Sequence record: OK148440 | DNA: 64,000 bases | Source: Escherichia phage MLP3 | Reading direction: 5' to 3' (one strand) | In this document: positions 8,722-42,609 of the stretch, one piece after another | How positions within the stretch are numbered: position 1 is the stretch's first letter | Layout: every line of letters starts with the position of its first letter | Program-made: the position numbers and the translations under genes | The notes under the pieces: generated by a model | Database searches by the model: none | Seen by the model: the letters and a program-made list of their open reading frames with translations, nothing else | What the model was told of the DNA's origin: nothing

Positions 8722-9030
8722 TTAGATAACCTTGTGCTTGTAGATGCTAGGGTTGAAGTAATGCAACCAGTTTATGTATTGTTTCTGTTCAAGGTAGTGT
8801 CTGCAATCATGACAAAAAGCATGACCCAAACCTGTTTCCTCGTTCAGCTTGAAGTTGATAAGAAGCTTCTGCTTTTGACAGAAGCTACATGCTTTAGTGG
8901 GCTTCACGTAGTGCATCCCATGAGATTGGGAAAAGTTTACGAAGCTCTTCATCAACAGTTGATGCGAACACTCGTACTTCATACTGAGCATGGTCGGACA
9001 GTCGCTGACGACATAACTCTGACCAGCCAT
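8722..9030 (-). CDS. Cys/His-rich small protein (start uncertain; overlaps 3' end of thyX)
   Basis: CSFCQ...CHDCRHY zinc-finger-like motifs; no convincing SD at any candidate start. Confidence 0.35.
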   Translation of the reverse strand: MAGQSYVVSDCPTMLSMKYECSHQLLMKSFVNFSQSHGMHYVKPTKACSFCQKQKLLINFKLNEETGLGHAFCHDCRHYLEQKQYINWLHYFNPSIYKHKVI

Positions 9031-9544
9031 ATAAAGAACCTGTCCACACCCACTCAGTGATCATACCTTGAGGTAGAACGAATCGGGCTTGCTCTGGAGC
9101 AATAAACTTAATCAACTCATCATATGACTCAAGAGCTGTTTCATATGCCCGATTAATCAGAACTAGTGCAGAGTTTTGCGCTCCTGTGGTGAGGAGATTC
9201 CCCGCACCTGCATGGAGGTCCGAAGGTCTTTCAAAAATCTCTTTAGGGATGAAGAGTTCAACTGCTCCATCTTTATACCGCCGGGACATTTCGTTCCACG
9301 AGAATCCAACTTGATGCTTGCCCAGCTGTCTCGCAATTGCGATTGGCGCTTTGCATCGGAAGCTAATTGTCGGATGGCGGAATGGTGTGACATGCTTTTC
9401 TCTGGCAAGGAACTTGATAAGGCGTTCATCTCGTTCATTTAACTCTCCTTCACGAGTAACCCCAAAGGAAACTCGAGCTGCATTAACAACAGATTTATCA
9501 GAACCCATTGCTTCAATTAGTGTTGCTTGTAATTGTTCGTTCAT
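8894..9544 (-). CDS. thyX: flavin-dependent thymidylate synthase ThyX
   Basis: ThyX signature RHP(x)...S and SRRY (RHR-x7-S-like motif). Confidence 0.8.
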   Translation of the reverse strand: MNEQLQATLIEAMGSDKSVVNAARVSFGVTREGELNERDERLIKFLAREKHVTPFRHPTISFRCKAPIAIARQLGKHQVGFSWNEMSRRYKDGAVELFIPKEIFERPSDLHAGAGNLLTTGAQNSALVLINRAYETALESYDELIKFIAPEQARFVLPQGMITEWVWTGSLYGWSELCRQRLSDHAQYEVRVFASTVDEELRKLFPISWDALREAH

Positions 9545-10471: not shown

Positions 10472-11047
10472 TTAGTAAGACACGTCACCACTGGAGTGGG
10501 ACATGTTGCTCTTGACGAAGTAACAGAACTTGCCAAGACCTTCATTAATTTCTTGAAGCATACTCTGATCAACTGGATAGGTGCACAAGTCTGAATCAAA
10601 CTCGTCCATCTTCTCAATGATACACATAAGAGTCATGCACATGTCGGAAAGCATACCGTCCATGTCGAGATCAGCGTTACCTTCTCGGAACCAAGCGTGA
10701 CCTAAATAGTTACTAGCAGTGGCATCCACCTTAACACAATGGAAGCGCATACGCTCTGCTATTCGGTCGCCTGCCTCACGGGCATAATCTTCTAGTTCAT
10801 CGAACATACCATGAACACCTTGGAAACCAGCTCCAGAGACGTTCCAGTGGTAGTTCTTTGCTTTGATGTGTAGAAGTTCAAGGTTAGCCTGCACACCACA
10901 AAGAATGTGCTCTAGGCTGTTACTGCTAATCAGTTTATTCATTCCCTCAAGACGAGAGATAGAAGAATCAGTAGTAGAGAATGGATTACTAGAACCCACT
11001 CTTGTTAGTTCTGGTAAGTCGAAGACATTATTATGCATTAGGTGCAT
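10472..11047 (-). CDS. Dps/ferritin-like protein
   Basis: HWNVSGAGFQGVHGMFDE resembles the Dps ferroxidase-site helix (HWNV...F...H...DE). Confidence 0.55.
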   Translation of the reverse strand: MHLMHNNVFDLPELTRVGSSNPFSTTDSSISRLEGMNKLISSNSLEHILCGVQANLELLHIKAKNYHWNVSGAGFQGVHGMFDELEDYAREAGDRIAERMRFHCVKVDATASNYLGHAWFREGNADLDMDGMLSDMCMTLMCIIEKMDEFDSDLCTYPVDQSMLQEINEGLGKFCYFVKSNMSHSSGDVSY

Positions 11048-12054: not shown

Positions 12055-12588
12055 TTATACACCCTTAGATGCAACTACACCATTACTGCCGTTGTATCGA
12101 CCCTTCACTGCATAAGAGTCATCACCAGCGTGAGAGTGTTCGAACATAACCATTTGACCAACACGCATCCCAGCACGAACTCGTAAGCTATGATTATGGG
12201 TAACGTTATGAAATTCAAAGGTTAGTTTACTGCTGTTAAACCCTGCATCAGCCCAACCAGCATGGAGGTGGTTTAAACCACAACGAGCCATTGAGGAGCG
12301 AAGTACAAACAGGCTTGAGATGTTATCTGGAAGGTTAAACTCTTCCATTGAGTGCGCTAAGAAGAATTGCCCCGGAGTGATAACAATACCATCTTCAGGG
12401 ATTTTTACTTCTTTCCACTTGAGGTTTTCTTTAGCATCAATGTCAACAATTCCGTCAGCCTGTTCTTCAACAAGGATAGTATCACCAATACGGATATCCA
12501 CGCTAGCAGCGTTAACATATTTATGCTCCGCATCTAAAAAGCCATTATCAATAACGCTGTGTAATTCTTGAGAACCTAAAAGACTCAT
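12055..12588 (-). CDS. dcd: dCTP deaminase
   Basis: dCTP deaminase/dUTPase-fold motifs VDIRIG, GWADAGF, GRYNGSNG. Confidence 0.8.
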   Translation of the reverse strand: MSLLGSQELHSVIDNGFLDAEHKYVNAASVDIRIGDTILVEEQADGIVDIDAKENLKWKEVKIPEDGIVITPGQFFLAHSMEEFNLPDNISSLFVLRSSMARCGLNHLHAGWADAGFNSSKLTFEFHNVTHNHSLRVRAGMRVGQMVMFEHSHAGDDSYAVKGRYNGSNGVVASKGV

Positions 12589-14036
12589 GAGTTTCTGTTT
12601 CCTTGTACAGATGATGCCAAATTATTAATCATGTTACGAGCTGTTTCACGAGATAGTGTAACACCTGCTAAGTTGTTATGAAGCTCACCAGATAGCTCAC
12701 GAGCAGCAGCTCGAAGTTCTGTACCAAGTGTAGTATCGGAGTGAGCCAAACCATTACGACGACTATAAGGTCGAGGAGCTTCGTTAGCGTCATTAGCCAA
12801 TGATGCAAAACCAATACGAGCAGCTTCACGAGCCGCTATAGTTGACACTCGATCTTCCGTAGGGGTTGGCAAATCACCAACTTCTACACGTTCTATATCA
12901 CCAGCACGTAGACCCTGAGCGACTGAGCTTACTGTTTCCCATGAACGACGAGAACGCTGTAAATCACCCATTGACGGAGAAGGAATAGGACGAGCAGTTC
13001 CTCCTTGGACATGCCATGTACGAGTATCCATTCCAGAAGAGCGTGCACTACCAAAACTGCCAGTGAAAGTGTCACGAGGTGCCATTGTAGGAGGAACTGC
13101 GAATCTTTCCTGTTGCCAAGAATCGCGTCTGTTAGTTCCCGGAGTCCAAGGTTGTTCAATTGCTTCAGCACCGATAGTAACTAATCCACTAGACCATTCT
13201 GTCTGTAGGTTAACTTCTTCATCAAGATAAATACGACCCCTTTCCTGAGGAATATTTAATGCAACCTCCATCATCTTCAGGGTATAATGACGACGTTGAT
13301 TCTGGTATAAGTTTACACCAGCCATAGGTCCAACTAACTCACTGATTGGATAAACTTCTGGCTCACCAAAAGCACCCATCGCAAGGTGCATGTATTCGGT
13401 AGAACTGCTATAAACTGCAACAGTTGCTTCAGGCCACTTTTTGTAGACATACTTCATTTCACGGCCTGTCACCACAGGGATAGAATCAGTATATGCCATT
13501 GCAAACAAACCTTCGTTTGACACATACATATCATTAAGAGTCATAAATCCTTGACAGATCATAGGGAAACGACGACTCAAAGTATCCATATCCAAAGGTA
13601 GATTAATCATCATCTGGATTTTAACTTGATCAATCTCAATTTCCAGAATCTCTTGGAAAGTGAAAAGTGATTCAGTATAGGTTGTTCCACTGATAGGCTG
13701 AACTAAGCGAGATGTGGTTTGAAGTCCTTTACTTTCTGTCCAAGATAAGAAGTTGTCAAGGAAAAGTGCAGCATTACCTGCGTTAGCAGGGCTGTTTTCC
13801 TGACGAGTGTTCCAACGAAACCCTCCTTGAACTAGGAAGATATCAACATCATTCGGAGTTCGATTTTGGAAGAACGTATCACGGATAGCACCACCTGCAA
13901 TAACAGGATAGATGCCATCAGGAACTACGTTGTCTCTGATCAGATTGCGAATCAGATCAAGCCCTACGCTGAGGGCTTCTCCTTCTTGAAGGTTTAATTC
14001 AGACAATGGAATCTTAATCATTTCTACATTTTCCAA
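12585..14036 (-). CDS. Pol-beta superfamily nucleotidyltransferase (CCA-adding/polyA-polymerase-like head domain)
   Basis: IAGGAIRD ... DVDIF matches the GG-x-VRD / DxD motif of tRNA nucleotidyltransferase head domains; C-terminal 250 aa low-complexity. Confidence 0.55.
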
Positions 14037-14572
14037 TTTAGAGATGGGGGATTCTTATAATCAAATCCAGCCATTTGACAAAGACACATGTAAACTTTAA
14101 CTGTCAAGTTAACGTCTTGCTCACAATAGGCGAACATGTCTTCAGTGAATGCGTCCCATGCCTCCTCCTGTTCTCCATAATCTCCTTTCAGCTCCCCAAG
14201 AAACTCGCCCCATTGTTTGAGGCCGTGACCACGAGGGCCATGTCTAGGGTCGCCTTTGGGGTATTCTGGACTATCACCAATACGGTCAGGCTTGAGATAT
14301 CTACTCAGGCACAAAGTATCGAAGACGTTAAAGCGAAAAGGTATCACATGAGAATAAAACTTAAACAAAGCAGGAAGGTCAAAATCAATAATATTGTGAC
14401 CTATTACTACATCAGCTTCTTTCAGTTTGTGTAGTGCTTCTTCAATTTGGTGAGGGCGATACCCCCACCGCTCTCCAGATAATACATCAAATATCCAGAT
14501 ACACCAGACATTCTGAATACCATCATAGAGATTATCCCCCTCAATATCAAACGCATACAGTTTCTTTACCAC
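14024..14572 (-). CDS. DEDDy 3'-5' exonuclease (stand-alone PolA proofreading domain)
   Basis: Exo I FDIEGD, Exo [11 protein letters not shown], Exo III YCEQDV. Confidence 0.8.
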
Positions 14573-16356
14573 GGACGTGCCTCCCCTTCTTGTGCAAGTA
14601 AGGAAGCTGCATCCTCTCCATTGGTAACGGTAAAAGGATGCTCTTCATCAACTTCATGATCTTCTCGTTCTACAAGACGACCTGTTTCATTGATGTATTT
14701 GGTATAGCAAACCCCTGTCTGTCCATAGTTACGCTCTTTGAGCAGTCGTATGATTGACAAGTTTTTACCTAACCCATCCGCTTGTTTGTTACGTTCAAAA
14801 CCAATAATACACTGACACCAGCGCATCAATGAACGTGAACCAGTAAACTGTACTTCTTTAACCTGACCACCTTCTTCGTGGGGTGCACCACCTGCCGGAG
14901 CGTTCAAGTGAGATAATACAAAAGCAGTGAAGTCTAATTCCTTACACATACCAGCAAGCTCTGAAGCAATCTTGCTGATTTCTGTGTTTACCTCAGATGG
15001 GGTTAAGTGAGATACCAATGCAGTGATGTTATCAAGAATGATAAATTTACACTGATTCTCAACTACCCAAAAGCGAATACACTGCTTAATGTCTTCCCAC
15101 TCGTTCTGCCCAAAGTTGTCATACAAGAAAAACTTATCAGCGTATCGAAGTGCTTCATCTCGTAGCTGGCTTTCTTCGTACTCAACATCCGGTCGGTGGA
15201 ATGGAATAGATGCAGATTTACCTGCAATGTTCTTAACAGACATGCCTACCTTCTCTTCCAAGAAGAAGCCACCACCATTAAAACCATGCTCAAGGCAAAG
15301 CCATGCTACTAGTTCGTGTGCGATTAAGGTTTTACCTGAACCAACACCACCGCCGATTGCAACCATCTCTCCCCAACGAATACCAAAGGTCATGTCGTTA
15401 AGAGTTTTCCACGGATAAGGAATACCCCATTCCGCTTTCTTCAGAGCATCTTCGAGGCAATCAAAAACTGTAACAGCGCCGGCAGGAGATTCCCGCTTAG
15501 CTGAATACTTCAGATTGTTGAAAAGCTCTTGACCTCTCCCTGCAAGTAACATGTCGTTTGCATCTTTGATTTCCTTTTCTTGTCCGTTATAAGTGAACGT
15601 ACCTTTTGGAATCCTTGCAAACTTAACATGCGGGTACAGAGAACGACCCTTAGTTAAAGCAATCTCACCTGCATCATCATTGTCCATGCAGAGTACAATC
15701 TCCTCGAAACCATTAATAAAATCACGGTTTCTTGATAATACAGAAGAGATTGAACCTGCACCGAACGGAAGAGAGACGCAAGCAGGTTTGATGTTAGTTG
15801 CGTTTGTAAACGCGGTAAGTACGTGGAACCCAGACATACAAGAGAGAGGATCTTCAAAGATGAAGAGTTTCTTGTTGTATACGTCACCACGTTGTGCTTG
15901 AGCCATACCAAACAAGTCGGCTTCTTTCACATTACCTACATAATAGAACTTCTTGCTGTCTAGAAGTTTTACTTCATATCCAACAATGTTCCCATCACGT
16001 TCACGAGGGAAGAAGTAGCTGTCAGGAGTTTGACCATCTGTTTGGCTTAAACCGATACGGCATCCATAACGTTCAGATACAGCTTTAGGAATTAAGCGAC
16101 GAGTCAACTCTCCCTGAGGAAGCTCTAAGCAATCGTCTAAGACTTCTCGGAGTTCTTCAGGGGACAGCTCTTTCTTTTCATTAGGAGTGGGCGTCGTTCC
16201 TTTCTCGAAGATTTCATACGCACCACATCTGTTACATGAACCCCACTCCTCACCGGACTCTTCATTTCGGAAGAGAATCATGTGATTGCGGGTCTTATCA
16301 CGACCATGAGAGATACACTCTTTACAGCCTGTGTCTCCCAAAATGATCTTTGACAT
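14566..16356 (-). CDS. primase-helicase (T7 gp4-like; zinc-finger + TOPRIM + DnaB-type helicase)
   Basis: N-terminal CKEC...CNRCG zinc ribbon; Walker [10 protein letters not shown]; helicase motif SHLN. Confidence 0.85.
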
Positions 16357-16391: not shown

Positions 16392-16598
16392 TTAGTAAAA
16401 CGATCGTATTTCTTCCCACACATCATCTTGCAAGTTTCTAAAACCCTGCAAGGTTTGCTTTGTTCTGTGAATAAATTCTTCAGAGTGCTTATCAGGTGTG
16501 AGCATACTGACAAACTTTTCATAGCGATTAATCTTCCACCGCATCTTCAAGTAGTCAGATTCCAGCTTTCTTAACTTCTGCCTGTCAGTTACTGTCAT
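16392..16598 (-). CDS. small hypothetical protein (ORF 16392..16694 trimmed to internal ATG)
   Basis: ATG at 16598 with AGGTGAGAAGG upstream; longer form overlaps the GGCT-like gene by 110 nt. Confidence 0.35.
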   Translation of the reverse strand: MTVTDRQKLRKLESDYLKMRWKINRYEKFVSMLTPDKHSEEFIHRTKQTLQGFRNLQDDVWEEIRSFY

Positions 16599-17016
16599 CC
16601 TTCTCACCTGCCAGATATGCTGTCCAGTCACCAGATTCAACCAGAACATCTTGTTCTTCGTCGATGTGATAAATCCATGCTTCCACAGTTTCACCGCTAT
16701 CCAATAATACTGGAATCAGCGTACGCTTGTAAAAGGTGTATGGGTTATCATTACCACGATGACCTTCTAGACCGTCATACGGACCTTCCAGACCAGCTTG
16801 GGTTGTTTCAAAGACTTCTACACGAACAGGCTTACCATTGCTATCATGCTCCAAAGATACACTTGGGAAGTATGCTGTGCAATACTGATACAGGTTACAG
16901 TTGTTGACTGTCCACCCTTCACCAATAGACACACCACCTGCACGAGCGTTGATAGCGTGGTTGTGTTGACCTTTACGAAGAGAACCATACGTTGCAACTA
17001 ATACTTTATCAGACAT
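16585..17016 (-). CDS. gamma-glutamyl cyclotransferase-like (AIG2/GGCT fold) protein
   Basis: N-terminal VATYGSLRKG motif characteristic of GGCT/AIG2-like proteins; about 143 aa. Confidence 0.6.
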   Translation of the reverse strand: MSDKVLVATYGSLRKGQHNHAINARAGGVSIGEGWTVNNCNLYQYCTAYFPSVSLEHDSNGKPVRVEVFETTQAGLEGPYDGLEGHRGNDNPYTFYKRTLIPVLLDSGETVEAWIYHIDEEQDVLVESGDWTAYLAGEKDDSN

Positions 17017-17020
17017 TACA

Positions 17021-17218
17021 TTACCTTTTGTTTAAGATTTCTTTTGTACAAGAAGTCCCGTTACACACGAGAATTGTTTGAGTTACAGAATCGACAACCG
17101 TTACATGACTGCCACATTGAGTTATGATTTGACCTCTCCCTGAATCTTTAGAGATACACTCATCAGCGGCAATTGCTGATACGCTGAACAAGGAGAGTAG
17201 GAGTAGAATCTTTTTCAT
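17021..17218 (-). CDS. small secreted Cys-rich protein
   Basis: Signal-peptide-like N-terminus MKKILLLLSLFSVSAIAA; six Cys. Confidence 0.5.
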   Translation of the reverse strand: MKKILLLLSLFSVSAIAADECISKDSGRGQIITQCGSHVTVVDSVTQTILVCNGTSCTKEILNKR

Positions 17219-17224
17219 GGCAGC

Positions 17225-17641
17225 TTACCAATCATATTCGAAACCAGAATAGCCGGAGAAGAGGATTGATCGGATTGTCTTTTCAGGAAATTCTTCAAAA
17301 CTTTCCTTAATAGCCCCCTTGGTTTCATCAGACACTGATCCTTTTTCACCAAACCAATATTCTCCAAAAATGTCAGAGAAGGTATAGGTTCGATATTTTT
17401 CCAAGTAGTAACAACCTTCCACCGCATCGGTAACCTCCTCACTGATGACACAAGAAGCTACAGGGAAAAGTGAGCTGTGCTCCATAAACAAACACCAACG
17501 ATTAAAGAGAGGAATCTCTTCATCTTTCAGAAGACTTTCTAATTCTTCCTTTGCCTCTTTCTTGTGCTTCTCAAAGAGGTTTTTGGAATACTCTACATCT
17601 AAGATATGGCTTTTAAACATATCCAGTTTATTGTCAACCAT
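17225..17641 (-). CDS. hypothetical protein
   Basis: 138-aa ORF. Confidence 0.5.
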   Translation of the reverse strand: MVDNKLDMFKSHILDVEYSKNLFEKHKKEAKEELESLLKDEEIPLFNRWCLFMEHSSLFPVASCVISEEVTDAVEGCYYLEKYRTYTFSDIFGEYWFGEKGSVSDETKGAIKESFEEFPEKTIRSILFSGYSGFEYDW

Positions 17642-17698
17642 TTTACAACCTCCAGTTAAATTCGAACTAGCCCCCTCTTTCGAAGAGGCTAAAGCAAA

Positions 17699-17884
17699 TT
17701 ATTCTACTTCGAAGTGTTTGATCACACCAGTCAGTACATCAGATTGGAACGTACCTACTAGCTCTGTACCTCGGAAAAAGTTAACACTTGTTCCAAGTGA
17801 TTCAAAGCGATCTGCTTGAATGTCCAGAGATTGAATATTTCCTTCTGCTGACATTGTACGAAACATGATTGTGTATTTATTCAC
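17699..17884 (-). CDS. hypothetical protein
   Basis: 61-aa ORF. Confidence 0.4.
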   Translation of the reverse strand: MNKYTIMFRTMSAEGNIQSLDIQADRFESLGTSVNFFRGTELVGTFQSDVLTGVIKHFEVE

Positions 17885-18123
17885 AGACTTGTTACTCCCT
17901 TATCTGCTTGTGCAATTGCGATGATACGCTCAGCACATTCCATTGAATATTTATCACCTCGTTTGAGGAAGGTGATGATTGCAGAGAACTGATTACCAAT
18001 CATTCTCTTATTTGTGATACCGAACTCTTCACAGAGTTGGTTGATAGCTTTACGAGAGCCTACAATCAGAGGCTCTTTTTCTTCGGTCATTCCACGGCTG
18101 ATCAAATCTTCGATAGACAACAT
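17881..18123 (-). CDS. hypothetical protein
   Basis: 80-aa ORF. Confidence 0.45.
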   Translation of the reverse strand: MLSIEDLISRGMTEEKEPLIVGSRKAINQLCEEFGITNKRMIGNQFSAIITFLKRGDKYSMECAERIIAIAQADKGVTSL

Positions 18124-18149
18124 TACAAATTCCTTTTTGTTTAATTTAA

Positions 18150-19385
18150 TTACAGAGTTACTGCTACTTCGCTACCCTCAACATTGACAGACTCTAACTT
18201 GCGAGGGTTATGAATCTGGACTGGATTGACCGGAACGTTCCAACCACTGCGGTAGAAGTTACGACCATCACAGAACAGGATGACATTGGCAGACATTGCA
18301 TTCGGTTGCAGGTTGTTGTGGACATGACGGATATTTGCAATCCAGTAGCCACGAGACAAAGTGTAGCCAGTAGGTGCATTACGAATAGTTTGAGTATTCA
18401 TCTGACCTTCCAGTTGCATTTCTTCAGGAACCACATCAACTGAATCAATCGGCTGTGCTACTTGTCCTTCCAGTGCAAAGTTTTCATCATCAGCACTTTC
18501 AATATCATCCACCAACTCACCGTCTCCATCTTCAATCGGAGTCTGGTAAACCACTTTATACTGAGGAGTATAGAGAGGGTTTTGAGCTTTAACAAACTCA
18601 AGAATGTTATGACGGTAGGTATCCAGAGTTGTACCAGTCAGGCCCGGTGCTGTATTAACTTCCAGTACCCACGCTTCTTGACCTTTGGTGATAATATCAA
18701 CTGCACCGAAATCCAGACCCATTGATTCAACAGCTTTCACTGCATTGATCAGAGAGGCGTCATTCGGAGCATCTGTGAAGGAGCTTGAGTAAACCCAGCC
18801 AGTGTGGTGATTACGAATATCTTCACGATAGTTAGGGTCTTCGCGATAACCATTGCGACGAATCTTCTTCTGAACATAGGTGATTACACCTTTGAACACA
18901 TGGACACGCCACTCACGACGTGGGCCTTGAATGCCTTTAGTGTACAGTTCAGCTCGACCAAGACCATCACCCGGTTCTACAACAACAATGCCCGAACCAG
19001 AGTGACCAGTCAGCTCATGGCGCTCATACACAATATTACCAGTGTTTGACCACTCTTGAGCAGTCTCTTGAGCATCTGTGTATTCCACAGTTTTAACACC
19101 TGCTTGGTCCATCACGCTGAAAGCACGACGTTTGTTCGCTGCCATATGTAAGGCTGCGGTACGGTTAAGGACGGTTGCAGAACCAAAGAATGATTCAGGA
19201 TAGCGACGGTTCCCGTAGTTAACAACCACATCACCTTCACGAGAACGCCAGCGGCTATTCTCTGAAAGAAGACCCATCACGTTAGCATTGATGCGTTCAT
19301 CACGGATAGTATCACTGATAGCAGATACTAGAGCGTTAACAGAATCAGACGGGCCATACGGAAGAACACGGATACGAGTAGTCAT
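18150..19385 (-). CDS. ATP-grasp family ligase
   Basis: ATP-grasp signature WVLEVNTAPGLTG and glycine-rich ELTGHSGSGIVVV. Confidence 0.7.
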   Translation of the reverse strand: MTTRIRVLPYGPSDSVNALVSAISDTIRDERINANVMGLLSENSRWRSREGDVVVNYGNRRYPESFFGSATVLNRTAALHMAANKRRAFSVMDQAGVKTVEYTDAQETAQEWSNTGNIVYERHELTGHSGSGIVVVEPGDGLGRAELYTKGIQGPRREWRVHVFKGVITYVQKKIRRNGYREDPNYREDIRNHHTGWVYSSSFTDAPNDASLINAVKAVESMGLDFGAVDIITKGQEAWVLEVNTAPGLTGTTLDTYRHNILEFVKAQNPLYTPQYKVVYQTPIEDGDGELVDDIESADDENFALEGQVAQPIDSVDVVPEEMQLEGQMNTQTIRNAPTGYTLSRGYWIANIRHVHNNLQPNAMSANVILFCDGRNFYRSGWNVPVNPVQIHNPRKLESVNVEGSEVAVTL

Positions 19386-19387
19386 TT

Positions 19388-19618
19388 TTAGATACCTTTT
19401 AGTTTAAGAATTTCGTTACGACAGGATTGAATTTTAGCTTCGATTGCCCAATACTCAGCGAACATTTCGTCTTCTTGGTCATCGCTTGGAGAGTCGATTA
19501 AGTTAAAAGCAAACGGATACAGCTTTCGCTGCTCCGTTACCAGTTGTTGAAGTCGGAGTTGTTGATACTCCAGCATTGTCAGGTGAGGCTTAGCTCCCTT
19601 GCTTGACATGAGGCTCAA
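19388..19618 (-). CDS. hypothetical protein
   Basis: 76-aa ORF. Confidence 0.45.
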   Translation of the reverse strand: MSLMSSKGAKPHLTMLEYQQLRLQQLVTEQRKLYPFAFNLIDSPSDDQEDEMFAEYWAIEAKIQSCRNEILKLKGI

Positions 19619-19823
19619 CTTTAATCCCCTTCATTTTAACATAGTCAGCCAACACGTTATTGATAACGGTTGGAAAAGGGATTTCTACTGGAGAGTCAAC
19701 CAGCTTCCCAATACCTTCTTGCATCCACTTCTGGATTGCTCGGAGGTTATCACATCCTGTGCTTGTCATCGGAATACGGCGGGTAGTTACCACGTTATCC
19801 AACATCAGTTTACGAACTTCCAT
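19590..19823 (-). CDS. hypothetical protein
   Basis: 77-aa ORF. Confidence 0.45.
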   Translation of the reverse strand: MEVRKLMLDNVVTTRRIPMTSTGCDNLRAIQKWMQEGIGKLVDSPVEIPFPTVINNVLADYVKMKGIKVEPHVKQGS

Positions 19824-19834
19824 AACTATACCTC

Positions 19835-21868
19835 TTAGTGTTTACCTTTACAGTAATCTGAATTACAGATCACCCTGTTTTCTTTGTTCAGTGAGCAAGT
19901 TTCTGCATCACGCCACGGAATTTGTTTATAACAAACTGCACAAAACCCAATTGAAGTCCAGAGGGCTTTTGTAAACTCAGCTGTTCGTTGTCCATCGTAA
20001 CTGACAACTGTTTTTCGGAGAGAGGTTGACTTTTCTGGAAATGTCTCCGCTTTCTCAGCGGGTACCTCCTTTGGGGCATTCTTTGGACCATAAACAGAGA
20101 TGGCATAAGTATCACCACCACGTTTTTCCAAATACGAATTAGGAACATCTGCAAGTGTGATGTCCCCTGAACGTTTTGCTGAGCTGACCATTACAATCAT
20201 ACGGCTAAGCATACGTTCATCAACACGAACAGCTACTTCAGGACGACGTGGGTTGGTTGTGTCCACTGCTTTAGTCCAAATATAACCCTCAGACAGCGTA
20301 ACATTCTTTACTTTGTCTTTGATTTCTTTGGAGCAGATATAACAAACATCTTCACCACGAAGTTTACTCATTTCGTTGTCAAACTCGAAATCAGTCTTGA
20401 CTTCACCACAGATAGCACATACACCCAAAGGCACATCTTCTTCCTCTTCAGAGGTTTTAGATAACGCTTCGAAGCATTCTGGATGCCAGTATGCCTGATA
20501 AGCAAACACAGCCTTACGAGCATCTTTCCAGTCAATGTGCTTATCACAACCACCACAGTCACCATGAGAGTGAGATTCCCAGAACTTACGAGTGACTTCT
20601 ACACCATTCTTAGTGATGAAGGAGTCCTCTGCATCAAAAGGGATATCATCATCAAAATCAGCAGTAGTGCTTTGAGGCTCCTTATCTGTAGCATCAACAA
20701 ACAGCCCTGAAGTTAGTACGAGGCGAATCATACTGTCCACTTCGGAGATACAAGCAATCGTCCCGCGATATACTACCTTTGGGTTTTCAAGAGCCTTAAG
20801 ATATTCATCTTTGGCTACGTTGTGAACATCCCCTTCGACATACTCTTGAGCTTTATCATCGTAGATGTAACCAACCATCTTACCACGATCTGTGTTGTTA
20901 TAAGCATGGAACTCGTGAGGAATAATATCCACACGACCATCACGACGATAAGGAAGACCACGATCGGCAGCCAGTTTGTTCTGGTCTTCAATCGCTTTAC
21001 GACGACGAATGTCTCCGCTTGTCACGCCGGGCTTGTCGTCTTTGTTTCCGTAAATGTCGCTTGTGCTGCTGCTTGATTTGTTTGTCTGTTGGTTCTGATA
21101 AAGAGAGGAGTTCGAGTAATAGCCGCCCCAGCGACTCGTTACCGTAAAAACCGGAAGCGTGTGCTCCACCTCTTGAACCAGAGTCATACGACTGTTAGAC
21201 ACATCAAAGATATACTCAGTTCCCACTTTACATTCGAAGTGGTCATTGATACGGTTCTTATGGGACTTAGAACGCTCTAAAATCCACATAAGCATAGCTT
21301 CTTCAGAAGCTCCAAACCAATCCAAACCACAGCGGGCTAGGTGGAAAGGACGCTCATCATTACGGATAATGTGAAGTGTGTTGTCTTTAGCATCATGCCA
21401 AATCAAAGTGAATGCACCATCCAGTTTTTGGATAGTCTCTGCTGCTCCAATGGTGTTAATTGAGTGGCAGATGTTTTCACTATCAACTTCGAAACGCTTA
21501 CTGTCAGGAAGGAGATCTTGATCTAACAGGGTTCCATTATGAACCAGAGTAATATCCCCGTGAGTAAATGGGTGAGCATTTCGAGCATTGACAGCCCCAC
21601 GAGTGGCATGTCGGCTGTGACCAACAATCCACGAAGGAGGAACTACGTAGTTCGTAAGCCCTTTGGTAATATTTGTATATTCTGTCTGGAGCATAAAAGC
21701 ATAAGAAGGAAGAGCTTCTTTATAAGAGAAGACTTGCTTTTCACCTTTACGCTGACCAAACACACCAGTTGAGTGCTGTCCACGGAAAACACCAGCATAC
21801 AGAAGTTGGTTGAAAATGTCCAAATCTGCTGAGGTCATGTTGCCGCCAGCTAATACGATACCACAAAT
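19835..21868 (-). CDS. class II (Ntn) glutamine amidotransferase fused to a Cys-rich C-terminal domain; probable AUU start
   Basis: GlmS-like HSRHATRG...NAHPF and LVHNGTL motifs; in-frame upstream codons ATT-TGT-GGT-ATC-GTA encode (I)CGIV matching the MCGIV N-terminus of GAT-II enzymes; AGGTGG SD 8 nt upstream of ATT; TAG two codons further upstream. Confidence 0.7.
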   Translation of the reverse strand: MCGIVLAGGNMTSADLDIFNQLLYAGVFRGQHSTGVFGQRKGEKQVFSYKEALPSYAFMLQTEYTNITKGLTNYVVPPSWIVGHSRHATRGAVNARNAHPFTHGDITLVHNGTLLDQDLLPDSKRFEVDSENICHSINTIGAAETIQKLDGAFTLIWHDAKDNTLHIIRNDERPFHLARCGLDWFGASEEAMLMWILERSKSHKNRINDHFECKVGTEYIFDVSNSRMTLVQEVEHTLPVFTVTSRWGGYYSNSSLYQNQQTNKSSSSTSDIYGNKDDKPGVTSGDIRRRKAIEDQNKLAADRGLPYRRDGRVDIIPHEFHAYNNTDRGKMVGYIYDDKAQEYVEGDVHNVAKDEYLKALENPKVVYRGTIACISEVDSMIRLVLTSGLFVDATDKEPQSTTADFDDDIPFDAEDSFITKNGVEVTRKFWESHSHGDCGGCDKHIDWKDARKAVFAYQAYWHPECFEALSKTSEEEEDVPLGVCAICGEVKTDFEFDNEMSKLRGEDVCYICSKEIKDKVKNVTLSEGYIWTKAVDTTNPRRPEVAVRVDERMLSRMIVMVSSAKRSGDITLADVPNSYLEKRGGDTYAISVYGPKNAPKEVPAEKAETFPEKSTSLRKTVVSYDGQRTAEFTKALWTSIGFCAVCYKQIPWRDAETCSLNKENRVICNSDYCKGKH

Positions 21869-21945
21869 TTTCTAATCCACCTGAAGGGTAAACCCTTTCA
21901 TCTAATTAACCTTTAAATGCGCCCTGTATAAGAGCGCCCGTTGTG

Positions 21946-23046
21946 TTACAGCAGTCGTTCTAATTGCATTTCCAGATGGTCTGGAATATAACCAGTGACG
22001 TTATCATCACTGCTACCTGATTCACGCATCAATGCAAACATGTGACGAATTTCACGAACCGTTGCGATTCGAGTGCTTTCAATCTGAGGGGTGTAGTAGG
22101 TCATGATCTCTTCGTAGACACTGTTGGCATTACCGCGCACATATCCCAAGAAACCATAGAAGTCATTCATATCACGTAAGTTGATAAGGACTTCACCATC
22201 AGGGCCAGTCTGTTGCACACGAACACGACCAACCAAAGTTACAGATTGCTCACGACAGAAGAGAATATCACGAGCAAGACGATACCCTTCAGTGAGATCA
22301 CTGTCTCTTGGAGTATAGTCTAGGGGTAGATGTTGAATCATAGGAGCGAAGCGCAGCTCATTCAACTTCTCAACATAAGCTTCATTGTCTAAATCTGCAT
22401 ATTCAACAGCAAGTTTCTTGAGAACCAAGAAGCGGTTGACCAGATTCAGAAGTTGGCTCTTTTTCCACTTCGGCTCTGAGATACGGAACTCAACAGAACC
22501 AAATTGAGATAGAGGCAAAAGATTAAGGGAGGTATATTTATCCCAGCTATTAACAAGAGAGTGGAAGAAAGCTTCCCCGTCTCGGTTGAACGCTGACGAA
22601 GCATTCATAACTTGTGCTTGAACGACAGCAAAAGCTGGACAGAAGTTGCTACGATAGCGATGGTATCCAGAACATTTGAACATCATCTTTTCATAGAACG
22701 TCCATCCAAGAATAACTTTCTTAAGGATATTACTATCAGCGTCACGCATATCCATATGAACGTGAGTGGAGCAGCGCCAAGTTCCCTCGGCTCCAGAATC
22801 CTGTACTGCTTCACTCAGATTGTTAATAGCACGAAGTAATTCTTCACCGTTGTAAGGTCGTGCACATACTAATTCACAACCATCACGAAGAGAGCCATCT
22901 TCAGTACAAACCCACATATCAGCGTCAATGTCAGTTGTACCTTCGACTTCTAACTCAATACCAACACCACACTGAAAAGCAATACTTGGATGCGGTTCAG
23001 ATAAGCGAGGGTTACGGTATCCAAAAACTTGTGCTACGGTTGTCAT
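21946..23046 (-). CDS. carboxylate-amine ligase (amidoligase / GCS2-like)
   Basis: GVGIELEVEG and STHVHMDM motifs resembling GCS2/YbdK-type carboxylate-amine ligases. Confidence 0.55.
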   Translation of the reverse strand: MTTVAQVFGYRNPRLSEPHPSIAFQCGVGIELEVEGTTDIDADMWVCTEDGSLRDGCELVCARPYNGEELLRAINNLSEAVQDSGAEGTWRCSTHVHMDMRDADSNILKKVILGWTFYEKMMFKCSGYHRYRSNFCPAFAVVQAQVMNASSAFNRDGEAFFHSLVNSWDKYTSLNLLPLSQFGSVEFRISEPKWKKSQLLNLVNRFLVLKKLAVEYADLDNEAYVEKLNELRFAPMIQHLPLDYTPRDSDLTEGYRLARDILFCREQSVTLVGRVRVQQTGPDGEVLINLRDMNDFYGFLGYVRGNANSVYEEIMTYYTPQIESTRIATVREIRHMFALMRESGSSDDNVTGYIPDHLEMQLERLL

Positions 23047-23669
23047 AATGATTCCACCAACTCTACATTATATGATGACAGGTCTGAAGAAATATGCTTG
23101 AACTTCTCCAGAAGGTTTAAAGATTGACGACCATTGTCGCCATAACCAGCTTCAAGAAGCACGTTTCCAACGTAAGCCCCTTTGTAATAAACTTTTCCAT
23201 CGACAGGATTGATATAGATGAAACGAGTAACCAACCCTTCAAACTCTGGATTAAACAGGTTATACACCAAATCACCCGGAATCGAACGTCCGAGAGAAGG
23301 TGGAGTACCACGAAGTTTATTCCCCATCAAGCCTTTAGCTCGCTGACGAACAGGGTTGATATGGGTCCAGCTCACCATGTTATTACCATGCTGAAGGTAT
23401 CCTACATCTGGAGACTCCAGAATGAGGCTGTGATCAAACACTGGGATATTACTAACAATCTGACGTTCAAACTGACCTTCAGAGTTTTTAGTCCAGCGTT
23501 CCGCCTCAAACACTAAAGACATTTCAGCGTCGTGTGAGTAGTCGTCAATATCAAAGTTACCTTGCTGACGAACATCAAGCACATATAGAGGGAGGTTTTT
23601 ACCATCAGGTGATCGCTGAGCAATCCATGTTCCACAATAATAGTGTTGAAAATCTCTTAACAAGCTCAC
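23043..23669 (-). CDS. hypothetical protein in amidoligase cluster
   Basis: 208-aa ORF translationally coupled to neighbours. Confidence 0.5.
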   Translation of the reverse strand: MSLLRDFQHYYCGTWIAQRSPDGKNLPLYVLDVRQQGNFDIDDYSHDAEMSLVFEAERWTKNSEGQFERQIVSNIPVFDHSLILESPDVGYLQHGNNMVSWTHINPVRQRAKGLMGNKLRGTPPSLGRSIPGDLVYNLFNPEFEGLVTRFIYINPVDGKVYYKGAYVGNVLLEAGYGDNGRQSLNLLEKFKHISSDLSSYNVELVESL

Positions 23670-23678
23670 AATATCACC

Positions 23679-24530
23679 TTATACAATCTGGAGTTTAGAG
23701 GAGAATTTATCCGCTTCTTTAACATCGTTACTGTTGATGATGTTGTGAAGCTTTTCAATTGGAAGGCGAGAGTGAAGTGACATCAATACTTCCATATCAC
23801 AGCCTTGAACAACCTTATCAACTTGCTCATAAACAAACTTGCGGGTTGACTTCTCGCCAATCCAGAAGTTAGAAAGAGAACGATATTCAATACCGTAATC
23901 TTTGTAGCGAATGGCAGAAGCCTTTCCGTATAACTCTTTACGACGAGTATCTTTATCCATGATCACAGCTGGCAAGGACAGGAAGTAATCACACAACACA
24001 CCCAACATCATTTGAGTCTGACGACTAATTTCCAGCGTACCAGTGACGCCAAGGTGAACATGACCGCCAGCAGTACGCAGACCTTTGTCTGTCGCTACTG
24101 GAGATGGGTTTTTCTGACCAGTGAAGGCGTTGAAATCAGGAGTACAACCAAATACAAAGGCTGACGGATGGAAAGATTCCAGCTCTTCTGAAGTGAACAC
24201 ATGAGAGCTAATCCCAAGTGCTGCCTCCATGCCACGTTCATTGAGAACTTTGTTAGTCAGATCAATACCACGCTGAATGTTATCATTAAACGCTTCAAAC
24301 CCTTTCTGTGGGTTAATATCGAACTCGGCCAGAACGTTGTCTTCTTGAAGACGAACATCAGGGGCCAGATCAATTTTGTTGTCTTTAGAGCAGCCCAGCT
24401 TACCAGCCACAGAGGTGATAATACCAGAAGCAGTACGAACAAACATTTCAGGGTCAGAACCAATAAGGAAAGCACGCTTAGTCATTGTAATACTCCACGA
24501 GTTCATCAAAAAGGGAAACAACACGAGCAC
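23679..24530 (-). CDS. second amidoligase-like protein (tentative)
   Basis: FLIGSDPEMFV and GGHVHLGV motifs reminiscent of the E-x-E and HVH motifs of carboxylate-amine ligases. Confidence 0.4.
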   Translation of the reverse strand: MLVLFPFLMNSWSITMTKRAFLIGSDPEMFVRTASGIITSVAGKLGCSKDNKIDLAPDVRLQEDNVLAEFDINPQKGFEAFNDNIQRGIDLTNKVLNERGMEAALGISSHVFTSEELESFHPSAFVFGCTPDFNAFTGQKNPSPVATDKGLRTAGGHVHLGVTGTLEISRQTQMMLGVLCDYFLSLPAVIMDKDTRRKELYGKASAIRYKDYGIEYRSLSNFWIGEKSTRKFVYEQVDKVVQGCDMEVLMSLHSRLPIEKLHNIINSNDVKEADKFSSKLQIV

Positions 24531-30551: not shown

Positions 30552-30627
30552 TGTGGTGCACCCTACAGGACTCGAACCTGTAACCAACGACTTAGAAGGT
30601 CGCTGCTCTGTCCGTTGAGCTAAGGGT
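30552..30627 (-). tRNA. tRNA-Arg (anticodon UCU)
   Basis: 76-nt cloverleaf folded by hand: acceptor GCACCCT/AGGGTGC, D-stem GCTC/GAGC, anticodon stem GCGAC/GTCGT with loop CTTCTAA, T-arm ACAGG-TTCGAGT-CCTGT, encoded CCA. Confidence 0.9.
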
Positions 30628-30638
30628 GCTGAATTTGT

Positions 30639-39545: not shown

Positions 39546-40405
39546 TTGATAGCCTCACAATTAGCAAAGTTAATAAAAGTTGTATAGACTGCTATACCGT
39601 CATTGTAGGCAGTGGTAGCGAGTACAGTTTCGCTAACATCGCCATAACTAACGAGATTAGTTACAAACTGTAATTTCTCTTTCTCAATCTTCTGATATAG
39701 AGAATAAGTTACCATGTCATGATCACTATCAGCACGCTTTAAATTAATAACCGATTGAACGCCAGACTTATCACCTAAGGGGGTAAGAGTGACACGCACA
39801 CTACTAACACTGACGTCATTGAAACGAACACGCCAAAAGGCATCATTTCCATCACTTCCAACGTCACGGCAAGCCATATCAGGAGCGTTTTTAAACGTGC
39901 TAACAAAGGATTGCAGACCAGTAGAAAGAGAGTCTTTTGCCTGAACATTGGTAGAGATAGCACTAACACCGATAGCTGCAACCAGTGCATAAGAAGCCAG
40001 ATTAACAGACTTCATAATCTTACTTGCAATAGAAGGCTTGCTATCTTTCTTCTTCTTGTTCTGAATAGCTTCAACCATAGCAGACAAGCGGGATAATACT
40101 GCGTTAGCATCGCGGCAAGATTCAGGCCAATCCTTTTGAGTCCAACTATCTAAATTAGCCTGAATGTAACAGTTGATAGCATCTTGCATATCGGTAAAAC
40201 CATTCTCTTTCATCGACTCTTTATCTTCACACTGTAAGGCGTTCGCGGTGGAATCAATGATGAGGCAAGCCAGAATGACAGAGTTTTTGAAGCTGGTACG
40301 AGCTTGCTGGTTATCCATCCATTGAGAAGGCACACCAACGGAAAGACCTAACGAAGAAAGTACATCATTTGCTTGATTCAAGTATTTAATTGCTAACTTT
40401 GACAT
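39542..40405 (-). CDS. hypothetical protein (287 aa); first gene of the leftward block
   Basis: Long ORF adjacent to the divergent intergenic region. Confidence 0.55.
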   Translation of the reverse strand: MSKLAIKYLNQANDVLSSLGLSVGVPSQWMDNQQARTSFKNSVILACLIIDSTANALQCEDKESMKENGFTDMQDAINCYIQANLDSWTQKDWPESCRDANAVLSRLSAMVEAIQNKKKKDSKPSIASKIMKSVNLASYALVAAIGVSAISTNVQAKDSLSTGLQSFVSTFKNAPDMACRDVGSDGNDAFWRVRFNDVSVSSVRVTLTPLGDKSGVQSVINLKRADSDHDMVTYSLYQKIEKEKLQFVTNLVSYGDVSETVLATTAYNDGIAVYTTFINFANCEAIK

Positions 40406-40789
40406 TTCCTTATCCTTTCGGTTGATGTGAATTAAAAACTACGATTGCAACTATATATTAAAGGAAAAACCTGTCAACCACTTATTTTCAAACTATTTCA
40501 TAACTCACTGAATATAAAAGGAATTTAATTTACTAAACTTTCTTGTTCAGAGATACAGCTTACCAAATAGATGTTATTTTATAACACTTACAGAACGGGT
40601 AGCAGACCAACGGGATAGATAGATGGGTAAGACGTGCCGCATAGGTTAGCCAATGGGTAAGAAGCCTAACGAGGAAGGGGAAACGGGTAGGATATAATGT
40701 AAGTTAGTTACAGTTAACAGGTCAGACCATGCGGTAATAAATTACCAGTCAATTCGCTACTATCGTAGCTCATATCAAATTCCTACTCA

Positions 40790-40870
40790 TCAAAGATAAA
40801 AGAAAAAGAAAAAAGAAACGCTGAAAAAGAAAAGAATAAAAGAAAGAATAAAAATAATAACTAAAGTAAA
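40790..40870 (+). repeat. oligopurine A-rich tract (AAAGA-type low complexity)
   Basis: aaagataaaagaaaaagaaaaaagaaacgctgaaaaagaaaagaataaaagaaagaataaaaataataa, almost pure purine on plus strand. Confidence 0.5.
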
Positions 40871-41357
40871 CAACTACCAGTCTAAACATACATACATCAA
40901 TAATCCACTCATGAATAATCACATAAGTTATTACATTCAAACTATGGGGGATGGTCATCAATGGTATAGTTTACATAGGTTATCATTAATGTTCTTACTA
41001 TTAATACCGGTTAGTTATAGTCTTCTATTAGTATGCCTGTACAGTGCTAGCCTTTCATCCCTTCTCAACATGAGTAAGAGAAATACGGGTAGGAAATCAC
41101 TGGTTAGATATACATGGGTAAATAATCAATGTGTAATATCAATGGGTAGGTTATTTATGGGTAGGTATGCCACTGAACGCAGGTAGGGCAAGGCTTAGAG
41201 CTTAAAGGCTGATTGATTTCCTAAAGGCAATTGCATTGGTAATAACCCTTTTTTAAATGAGGACTCCCCCCTTTTAGGAAACGCGCTCGGAGCGGCTAGG
41301 TCCATCCGGTCAAATTGAAATTTTAAACTCTTATATATAAGAATAAGGAACTATTTT

Positions 41358-41522
41358 ATGTGGAAGATTAAGTTACTAATTAAGCAATTCAAATGTCAAC
41401 ACGAATACTACCCGATACGGATATCGAGAGGAGATGAACGGTTACACGCTTATTACAAGAGTACATGGAGATGTGCAGACTGTGGTAAGGTTAGGAATAG
41501 TAAATGGGTGGATAGACCATAG
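41358..41522 (+). CDS. small zinc-ribbon protein (54 aa)
   Basis: ATG at 41358 with AAGGA upstream; CQHEYY...CADCGK; below ORF-track cutoff; lies between repeat clusters. Confidence 0.3.
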   Translation: MWKIKLLIKQFKCQHEYYPIRISRGDERLHAYYKSTWRCADCGKVRNSKWVDRP

Positions 41523-41714
41523 AGAGTATGGGGTGGCCTTAACATGACATGGCCTTAATGGGTAAGCACTACTTCGTAGTGACGATGCCTTAATGTGGGG
41601 TAGCCTTTATGGAGTCCCCTTTACATCAGCGTACACGGGTTAGTACACGGGTGGGCCTTTAGATGAGTACGCCTTTATGGGTTGATCACTCTCGTTTATC
41701 AGAGGAGAATAAAT

Positions 41715-41963
41715 ATGTTTCTAGACTTTTTATCAGAGGTACTTCCCTACTTCCGCACTGAGAAATGTGCATTTGTATTTGATGAAGGGGAGGAGTCAAT
41801 GACTTGTTTGGGTAGATTGGTAGACCTAGACGACGATGAAGATTTTGATGCTACGATGGACATTAGTTCATTGGGCTGGTTGTACATGAGATGCTTTGTA
41901 AGTTACAAGGCTGAAACGTTTAAAGATTATCGCTATAGCGCTGAAGGAGAGAATGATGAATAA
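41715..41963 (+). CDS. hypothetical protein (first gene of rightward block)
   Basis: ATG at 41715 with GAGGAG 8 nt upstream (internal Met of ORF-track ORF 41682..41963). Confidence 0.45.
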   Translation: MFLDFLSEVLPYFRTEKCAFVFDEGEESMTCLGRLVDLDDDEDFDATMDISSLGWLYMRCFVSYKAETFKDYRYSAEGENDE

Positions 41964-42609
41964 CATGACAGGAACTAATACACTGAATGCAATCTATGAG
42001 AACATGGGATGTAAAGGCGAAGTTACTTACAATGGTTCACTCCGTCCTTTATCAGAGGACACTTTCTATCTGAATCGTGTTCATGAAACTACTGGAGGTA
42101 AATCCCGAGTTGAGATGGTAAAACAACTGGCTCATGGTTCTGTGTACGGTTATGCTCCTTCAACCCGTGAAATATGGGAAGGTTTGATTCCTCGTACAGA
42201 AGCTAAAGATGTGAAAGACTATTTCACTGTGGCAAAAGAAGTTAAACGTAAGTGTCCATCCAATTTAGAAGTTGTTCCGTATGTAGCTGACAAACATGCA
42301 CACCTACCGGACTATGCCCGTGAGATGATTGAGATGATTGAAGAAGCCGAGTATGAAGCTCTGAATAATTATTTAAATTCAAAAGATCAATGGTCACGTA
42401 ATGTAGTAATTGATGAAGAAGGTAATGAAGTAGTTACGTGGGTACATGCTAGTGAACAAGCTCTGGACCCCGAGCTTGAAGAATACAAAAAATTTTTGGC
42501 GTCCTCTTCTTTTGATGTAGAGAATGACAAATCTGTTCCAGTTAGCTGGGAAGGTGAAACTGTAGCTCTCCAGACTTTGTTCAACCTACACGTAGGTGAT
42601 GTAGATTAA
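41953..42609 (+). CDS. hypothetical protein (218 aa)
   Basis: ORF with AAGGAG SD; followed by terminator. Confidence 0.55.
   Translation: MMNNMTGTNTLNAIYENMGCKGEVTYNGSLRPLSEDTFYLNRVHETTGGKSRVEMVKQLAHGSVYGYAPSTREIWEGLIPRTEAKDVKDYFTVAKEVKRKCPSNLEVVPYVADKHAHLPDYAREMIEMIEEAEYEALNNYLNSKDQWSRNVVIDEEGNEVVTWVHASEQALDPELEEYKKFLASSSFDVENDKSVPVSWEGETVALQTLFNLHVGDVD

Follow-up and report, generated by a model that had tools for sequence, protein, structure and literature searches.

In the 64,000-nucleotide stretch of Escherichia phage MLP3 that was analysed (sequence record OK148440; hereafter the window), a gene encoding a nucleotidyltransferase (NTase) was found on the minus strand beside replication genes. 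The original prediction, made from the DNA letters alone, had placed a Pol-beta-type NTase with an AGGAIRD ... DVDIF motif in an open reading frame (ORF) at 12585-14036, and both the frame and the motif are real. In the ORF list this frame runs uninterrupted over 12585..14036 from a TTG start and encodes 483 aa, but its upstream end has to be moved, as sequence comparison indicates that the true start is almost certainly ATG 14021 and not TTG 14036. All 22 of the 22 close database homologues open with MIKIP, the match to PHROG 12715 opens at residue 6 of the TTG form, the stop codon of the upstream exonuclease gene (14024-14026) lies 2 nt before the ATG, phage SU7 is annotated likewise, and the resulting product is 100% identical to the 478-aa phage MLP3 protein. 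The NTase gene, assigned from PHROG 12715, its homologues and the start context, thus covers 12585..14021 (478 aa plus stop), with the motif at residues 40-62; the TTG 14036 start would add 5 codons and an overlap with the exonuclease gene.

The NTase gene stands in a conserved string of minus-strand genes headed by a primase/helicase gene (14566..16356; ORF list, annotations and Pfam DnaB_C on orthologues). Its upstream neighbour encodes the DNA polymerase 3'-5' exonuclease subunit (14024..14572; ORF list, annotation in phiEco32, SU7 and KBNP1711, and Pfam DNA_pol_A_exo1 on an orthologue), and its downstream neighbour encodes a dCTP deaminase (12055..12588; ORF coordinates, Pfam DCD on orthologues and synteny in all genera). 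The dCTP deaminase start and the NTase stop share 4 nt, so that the two genes are probably co-translated in one operon. In addition, a promoter and terminator scan gave no signal above chance that separates the NTase gene from its neighbours. The same order of primase/helicase, polymerase 3'-5' exonuclease subunit, NTase and dCTP deaminase was found in phiEco32, SU7, KBNP1711 and Bas89 and also in a more divergent metagenomic clade, and this synteny spans three genera.

The NTase matched the profile of PHROG 12715 'nucleotidyltransferase' with E=7.9e-159 (residues 6-476 of the TTG form, profile positions 1-456/457), and its PHROG matches were limited to 12715, 1614 and 10174. The NCBIfam scan of the protein gave no match, and the sole match in the Pfam scan, Sipho_Gp37 at E=0.18, was spurious. 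Homologues were present in 97 phage records, every one of an Escherichia or Shigella phage; 22 of these are Suseptimavirus-type, with 80-99% identity over the full length, while the other 75 are Kuravirus- or Nieuwekanaalvirus-type, with ~30-40% identity across an N-terminal part of about 210-390 residues (mostly 1-288). The Bas87 orthologue is 88% identical. No counterpart was found in plasmids. Because the PHROG 12715 match is full length and 97 phage records carry homologues, this ORF is more than a chance open frame; it belongs to a previously annotated and catalogued family, and both this syntenic family and the relative Gad2, described below, had been missed in the original prediction. 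The 8-kb stretch around the NTase gene is 97% identical at the DNA level to phages IME267 and HC-25922, and by its sequence the source phage is a member of the genus Suseptimavirus in the Gordonclarkvirinae (phiEco32-like).

An AlphaFold2 model based on a 43-sequence alignment was confident for residues 1-272, with a predicted local distance difference test (pLDDT) score of mostly 75-90, and the model of a Kuravirus orthologue had the same outcome (residues 1-287 confident). This folded catalytic region (13206..14021, minus strand) comprises a class II (PolyA_pol-type) head and a short helical neck-like part, and the model has the alpha/beta fold of Pol-beta-like enzymes. Foldseek against the PDB retrieved class II enzymes (best E=1.3e-5, probability 1.0), and class II RNA-end enzymes stood clearly above CdnE, DncV and OAS in the fold comparison. 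At the sequence level, a PDB match needed a profile of 80 superfamily sequences: the single-sequence search gave noise and a six-sequence profile reached CCA-adding enzymes at E ~1, while the 80-sequence profile matched only class II CCA-adding enzymes and poly(A) polymerases (PAPs) with E=4e-8 to 1e-2, over motif A only. Furthermore, an hhalign alignment with E. coli Cca took in both the head and the first neck helix (154 columns, probability 72%, E=3.5e-5).

Motif A (GGAIRD...DVDIF, residues 43-62; 13836..13895, minus strand), assigned from conservation and from alignment to class II CCA enzymes, contains the NTP-binding GG, R47-D48 and the catalytic D58xD60. With one residue more at its start, AGGAIRD...DVD fits the GGxVRD...DxD of class II CCA enzymes and PAP I when aligned to Cca and to the CCA enzymes in the PDB. 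Across the 80 superfamily sequences G43, G44, R47, D58 and D60 are invariant and D48, Q136 and F152 nearly so; G43-G44 and D58-x-D60 are also invariant in the 43 family sequences, as in Pol-beta-type NTases. The catalytic aspartates are thus present, and profile searches gave no unrelated family; the kinship with CCA and poly(A) enzymes that had been read from the motif is borne out by the fold, motif A and the invariant DxD. The ratio of nonsynonymous to synonymous substitution rates (dN/dS) against SU7 is 0.12 for the catalytic domain, which indicates strong purifying selection.

Outside motif A the protein departs from the CCA-adding enzymes. In these enzymes an Asp in motif B is held to read the ribose 2'-OH, and EDxxR in motif D serves as the amino-acid template for CTP and ATP. 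The motif B equivalent of the NTase (RRFPMICQG, residues 150-158; 13548..13574, minus strand), located with hmmalign to the superfamily profile and hhalign against E. coli Cca, keeps R150-R151; the Asp of Cca 'RRDLTINA' and of superfamily 'FD.gIC(K)', however, is replaced in Gordonclarkvirinae by Pro153 (F152-P153-M-I-C) with a one-residue deletion, the alignment confidence here being moderate. Within the family, F152 is invariant and P153 is conserved in at least 90%. The motif D template of Cca (EDPLR, within GEDPLRVLRVARF) has no conserved acidic or Arg counterpart in the NTase family or superfamily, and the first neck-like helix carries instead a family-specific KKWP (residues 194-197; 13431..13442, minus strand), which is invariant in three Gordonclarkvirinae genera, holds 2 of the 7 lysines of the protein and corresponds to K(Y/F)P in the superfamily consensus. 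The helical neck of the CCA enzymes and PAPs is followed by body and tail domains, whereas in the NTase nothing is folded past residue 272 and a disordered, lysine-free tail of 206 residues takes their place. Since the motif B Asp, the EDxxR template and the body and tail domains are all missing, the NTase is in all probability not a CCA-adding enzyme. By sequence and model it is a minimal class II-type (PolyA_pol-head) enzyme with an intact GG...RD...DxD metal and NTP site, and the best-supported reading of these features is that it would be catalytically competent.

The original prediction had also described a C-terminal half of 250 aa, rich in Ser, Ala and Arg, of low complexity and unlike a tRNA-binding body. 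The last point stands, as the C-terminal part is predicted to be disordered in both the NTase and Kuravirus models, with pLDDT <50 from residue 273 on in the NTase. In line with that description, no residue is more frequent over the last 250 aa than R (10.8%), A (10.0%) and S (8.8%), but the biased and disordered part, counted from residue 273 by model confidence or from about residue 290 by alignment, spans only ~190-205 aa, and the bias is compositional, not repetitive. Residues 291-478 contain R 12.2%, A 11.2%, S 10.6%, T 9.0% and G 8.5%, the 40-residue entropy in the biased region is modestly lower (3.3-3.7 vs 3.6-3.95 bits), and no tandem repeats were found in the DNA of this region. The tail can be divided, by pLDDT, indels and dN/dS, into a disordered, indel-rich, lysine-free linker rich in R, A, S, T and G (residues 273-430; 12732..13205, minus strand) and, by identity, dN/dS and model, a conserved C-terminal tip (residues 431-478; 12588..12731, minus strand). 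Clades become unalignable from about residue 290, and close relatives carry in-frame linker indels of up to 16 residues before the common C-terminus is regained. Against SU7, dN/dS is 0.46 for residues 273-430 and 0.11 for residues 431-478, the latter being like that of the enzyme domain; tip identity within the genus is 94-100%. Two helices (431-451 and 458-474) are predicted in the tip at low confidence. The Kuravirus clade likewise keeps a tip of its own of ~35 residues ('...PQTRTVRFADEAGRGISFD.ETNN') while its linker length varies. A fused or frame-shifted second ORF was considered as the origin of the tail and ruled out, because the frame is kept through indels that are multiples of three, the conserved C-terminus is regained and dN/dS is <1 throughout. 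The predicted layout of enzyme, flexible linker and conserved tip is that of a tethered interaction motif, and the tip is likely to act as such a module. In many clades an aromatic residue stands last or nearly last in a short C-terminal motif (…SRFSF, …RRFNF, …IRWQW, …GGWTF and …SEYDF; P0068, P0069, P0071, P0074, P0075 and P0078-P0081). Such aromatic C-termini recall the tips of phage and bacterial replisome proteins, and the MLP3 tip (…SSVQGNRNS) is without one.

The tail is also free of lysine. Residues 273-478 (206 aa; 12588..13205, minus strand) contain 23 Arg and 0 Lys, and among the 72 family members whose tail is 40 residues or longer, which represent at least 6 clades with unalignable tails, 8 Lys were counted in 11,516 residues, all 8 in one fragmentary sequence. 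Proteins of the window average 5.5% Lys, a rate at which the probability of 0 Lys in 206 residues is ~1e-5. Base composition was ruled out as the cause: the codon-position base composition of the tail predicts 4.6 Lys (P(0)=0.006; 4.0 for the phiEco32 tail), Asn codons are common, and AAA or AAG occurs 14 times in the other two frames. At 1.5% Lys overall, the NTase ranks second lowest among the proteins of the window. Avoidance of lysine-directed modification and arginine-only nucleic-acid contacts are both possibilities. A DUF6453 protein of 344 aa in the late structural region (61950..62984, plus strand) has one Lys (0.3%) and, with 337 residues, the longest lysine-free stretch in the window. 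Upstream of the replication genes lies an amidoligase cluster of the phiEco32 type (16585..24506, minus strand), with genes for a GGACT-like gamma-glutamyl cyclotransferase (16585..17016), a RimK-like ATP-grasp protein (18150..19385), a class II glutamine amidotransferase (19835..21838), Amidoligase_2 (21946..23046) and a 'phiEco32-like COOH-NH2 ligase type 2' (23679..24506), all on the minus strand. Several proteins of this cluster are also lysine-poor (2.7-3.5% Lys) and might be linked to the lysine-free NTase tail. Literature searches on phiEco32 with ATP-grasp and on Gordonclarkvirinae with Gabija found nothing relevant.

A word-indexed search had reached only the close relatives and four distant ones, and further relatives were obtained by exhaustive search. 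When the family profile, a hidden Markov model, was run exhaustively against 1.84 billion representative proteins, it gave 308 matches at E<=1e-3, 22 of them at E<=1e-30. The majority of the distant members stand alone as proteins of 170-250 aa and belong to PHROGs 1614, 7967 and 10174, some of them above the threshold of PF01743, and a viral structure library contained the same kind of protein from T7-like, LUZ24-like, ICP1 and other phages (TM ~0.5-0.6 over ~200 residues). The LUZ24 homologue gp42 (L012 5956..6900) overlaps the end of the 5'-3' exonuclease gene within the polymerase module, the Ralstonia phage BOESR1 homologue (L013 4426..4956) lies between primase/helicase and DNA polymerase, and the Caulobacter phage Percy homologue (L014 4417..5031) lies directly upstream of the primase, helicase and polymerase genes. 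This recurrence of remote homologues of the NTase core in or beside the replication modules of unrelated podoviruses favours a putative role in DNA metabolism or the replication phase over one in tRNA metabolism.

The superfamily also includes Gad2, the Gabija anti-defence protein 2 of Bacillus phage SPbetaL7, a predicted NTase that is toxic on expression (Yirmiya et al., bioRxiv 10.1101/2023.05.01.538930); its sequence was taken from the supplement of that paper. The first-round family profile scored Gad2 at 15.4 bits over motif A. The second-iteration profile, built from 184 first-round matches, scored it at 43.6 bits over profile positions 33-182 (120 residues), that is, the whole NTase core including the 'LQM' strand and 'FDFTVC', while hhalign of the NTase and Gad2 aligned 41 columns (probability 59%). 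In precomputed Pfam annotations, PF26128 'Gad2' is a weak match on Kuravirus orthologues (e.g. P0023) and on one small relative (P0098), and a match not marked as weak on P0070. Gad2 itself matched PHROG 18122 (E=1e-89), 27100 and others, and 1614 weakly. Because the second-iteration profile matches the whole core, yet direct similarity is limited to motif A and the PHROGs differ, sequence comparison identifies Gad2 and the MLP3 NTase as remote homologues in one phage NTase superfamily and not as members of one family.

Beyond the fold, motifs, architecture, conservation and synteny observed above, we propose a substrate, a nucleotide donor and a biological role for the NTase. By two-metal catalysis and without a template, the enzyme would transfer a nucleotide to the 3'-OH of a nucleic-acid end, the donor being an NTP or possibly a dNTP. 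The tRNA-measuring body and tail and the amino-acid nucleotide template of the CCA enzymes would have been lost, and because of this loss substrate targeting would be supplied by the disordered tail, whose tip may dock on a partner such as a phage replisome protein or a host protein. We give this overall reading, a minimal class II-type NTase expressed with the replisome genes, tethered by its tail and acting without template on nucleic-acid ends, about an even chance of being correct. That its role is to protect or mark phage nucleic-acid ends against host nucleases or defences, as a Gad2-like counter-defence, is a tentative suggestion that we consider rather less probable than not.

Several observations weigh against this proposal. 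The acceptor, the nucleotide and the activity itself are, for all family members, deduced from sequence; Pro in place of the superfamily motif B Asp could reduce or alter activity; and no motif is common to the tips of different clades. The placement among replication genes may reflect middle-gene timing only. The link to Gad2, as sequence searches draw it, is transitive and confined to the NTase core. Direct pairwise similarity between the two proteins covers 25-41 residues of motif A only, BLASTP of the NTase against Gad2 found no similarity past motif A and none with the C-terminal half of Gad2, the Gad2 PHROGs 18122, 27100 and 16176 were unmatched by the NTase protein, and the PF26128 match was absent from the precomputed record of the identical protein P0001. 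Moreover, the mechanism of Gad2 was still unknown in 2026 (PMC12904381).

The functions offered in the original prediction are unsupported, in contrast to its structural reading, which was right. In line with the suggested repair after anticodon-nuclease attack, the NTase might be a true tRNA nucleotidyltransferase, working in CCA addition or in the mending of tRNA 3' ends damaged by a host nuclease or toxin: among solved structures, class II CCA-adding enzymes and PAP I come nearest in fold, motif A fits GGAVRD...DxD and the phage carries one tRNA gene. However, only the head and first neck helix are retained, with no body or tail to hold a tRNA, the EDxxR template is absent and the motif B Asp has become Pro. 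PF01743 (PolyA_pol head; gathering score 23 bits) was not matched by the NTase protein at E up to 10, its orthologues score 13-21 bits and so fall below the gathering score, and PHROG 2244 'tRNA nucleotidyltransferase' was not matched by the NTase protein. The sole tRNA gene in the window, tRNA-Arg(TCT) (30554..30629, minus strand; an Rfam scan of the window gave tRNA only), ends in a DNA-encoded 3' CCA (…GGGTGCACCA) and therefore needs no CCA addition for maturation, and the host carries its own cca gene. With the sampled homologues located in replication modules as well, a tRNA function is improbable. An enzyme that makes, caps or consumes a signalling nucleotide in the manner of cGAS/DncV-like nucleotidyltransferases (CD-NTases) is highly improbable, since class II RNA-end enzymes clearly outrank CD-NTases in the fold match, no PADLOC model was matched, including those for cyclases of the cyclic oligonucleotide-based antiphage signalling system (CBASS), and a CD-NTase C-terminal lobe is absent.

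A covalent genome modification, produced by the NTase and the adjacent dCTP deaminase acting together on DNA or the nucleotide pool, would explain the marked restriction resistance of Gordonclarkvirinae, as suggested by Humolli et al. (2025). The BASEL paper reported strong resistance to restriction-modification with no known modification pathway and pointed to this locus (PMC11990801). The 4-nt overlap and a pairing conserved in all genera would agree with such a joint function, and a motif B without its Asp would fit an altered sugar specificity, but the phage also encodes a ThyX thymidylate synthase (8894..9544, minus strand), which points to an ordinary dTTP-supply role for the dCTP deaminase, and no dCTP deaminase is annotated in the examined flanks of the LUZ24, BOESR1 and Percy homologues. 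To our knowledge, no DNA hypermodification pathway includes a class II-type NTase and no modification has been reported, and we regard genome modification as unlikely. A pseudoenzyme or scaffold, whose NTase fold serves for binding only and whose tail brings together the replisome or other complexes, would account for the lost motif B Asp in the Gordonclarkvirinae clade, for a tip as constrained as the domain and for the long tethering linker; it is quite improbable, as GG, RD and DxD are invariant across 80 very divergent sequences, a pattern typical of retained catalysis. A further elaboration, speculative and quite unlikely, would make the NTase a terminal (deoxy)nucleotidyl transferase that is tethered to the replisome, with its tip bound to a replication protein or host DNA-end protein. 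Its Asp-less motif B would admit dNTPs, the untemplated tails that it adds to phage DNA ends or primers would defeat host nucleases and defences that sense DNA ends, such as RecBCD and Gabija-like systems, and the lysine-free tail would be an adaptation against lysine-directed modification by the host or by the phage amidoligase/GGACT cluster. If this is true, the unusual resistance of Gordonclarkvirinae to defences would be due in part to such a terminal transferase, and the Gad2 superfamily as a whole would gain a candidate mechanism.

Other features of the window were also recorded. ThyX and the dCTP deaminase (12055..12588, minus strand) together make up an ordinary dCTP -> dUMP -> dTMP route, and the presence of both argues against deoxyuridine in place of thymidine in the phage DNA. 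Four genes downstream of the NTase gene, a Dps/ferritin-like 'DNA binding protein' is encoded (10472..11047, minus strand), which is conserved in the relatives examined (Pfam Ferritin on orthologues). A change of sign in the GC skew coincides, at ~40000..42000, with a switch of coding strand, where the early and middle genes on the minus strand diverge from the late (structural) genes on the plus strand.

Gordonclarkvirinae are abundant E. coli phages in therapeutic use, and the NTase gene belongs to the core of their replication module. Almost none of the defence systems tested is effective against these phages, with no mechanism known (PMC11990801). The superfamily shared with Gad2 provides a concrete and genetically testable hypothesis, for which BASEL isolates that infect K-12 exist. 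Dissection of the protein into an active-looking head, a lysine-free linker and a constrained tip can guide the choice of mutants and guards against misannotation as a CCA-adding enzyme. If the NTase modifies nucleic-acid ends, this could explain a whole family of small NTases in T7-like, LUZ24-like and ICP1 phages. The link to Gad2 and the lysine-free tail are the parts most worth following up.

Among known systems, the class II CCA-adding enzymes and PAP I are close to the NTase (e.g. E. coli PcnB 3aql, T. maritima 3h37 and human TRNT1 1ou5), with a sequence identity of 11-15%. Close known kin are the stand-alone PolyA_pol-head NTases of phages (PHROGs 1614, 10174 and 7967; e.g. LUZ24 gp42, BOESR1 gp25, Percy gp13 and Vibrio phage ICP1 ORF223) and the CCA-head protein 2la3. 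Unlike the MLP3 NTase, these small phage proteins are mostly 170-220 aa and tail-less, they keep the 'FD' Asp, and several of them pass the PF01743 threshold. Gad2, in turn, is phage-encoded and has the same kind of NTase core, with IIAGGA...NDVDI(Y/F)F, the 'LQM' strand and 'F(D/P)..(V/I)C.G', and its 400 aa are similar in size to the 478 aa of the MLP3 NTase. It differs in having TS where the NTase family has R47-D48, in keeping the FD Asp, and in a C-terminal half of other composition and without similarity to the lysine-free tail; furthermore, the Gad2 gene lies in an anti-defence locus, whereas the MLP3 NTase gene lies in a replication module. Gad2 is the closest phenotypically characterised relative of the NTase.

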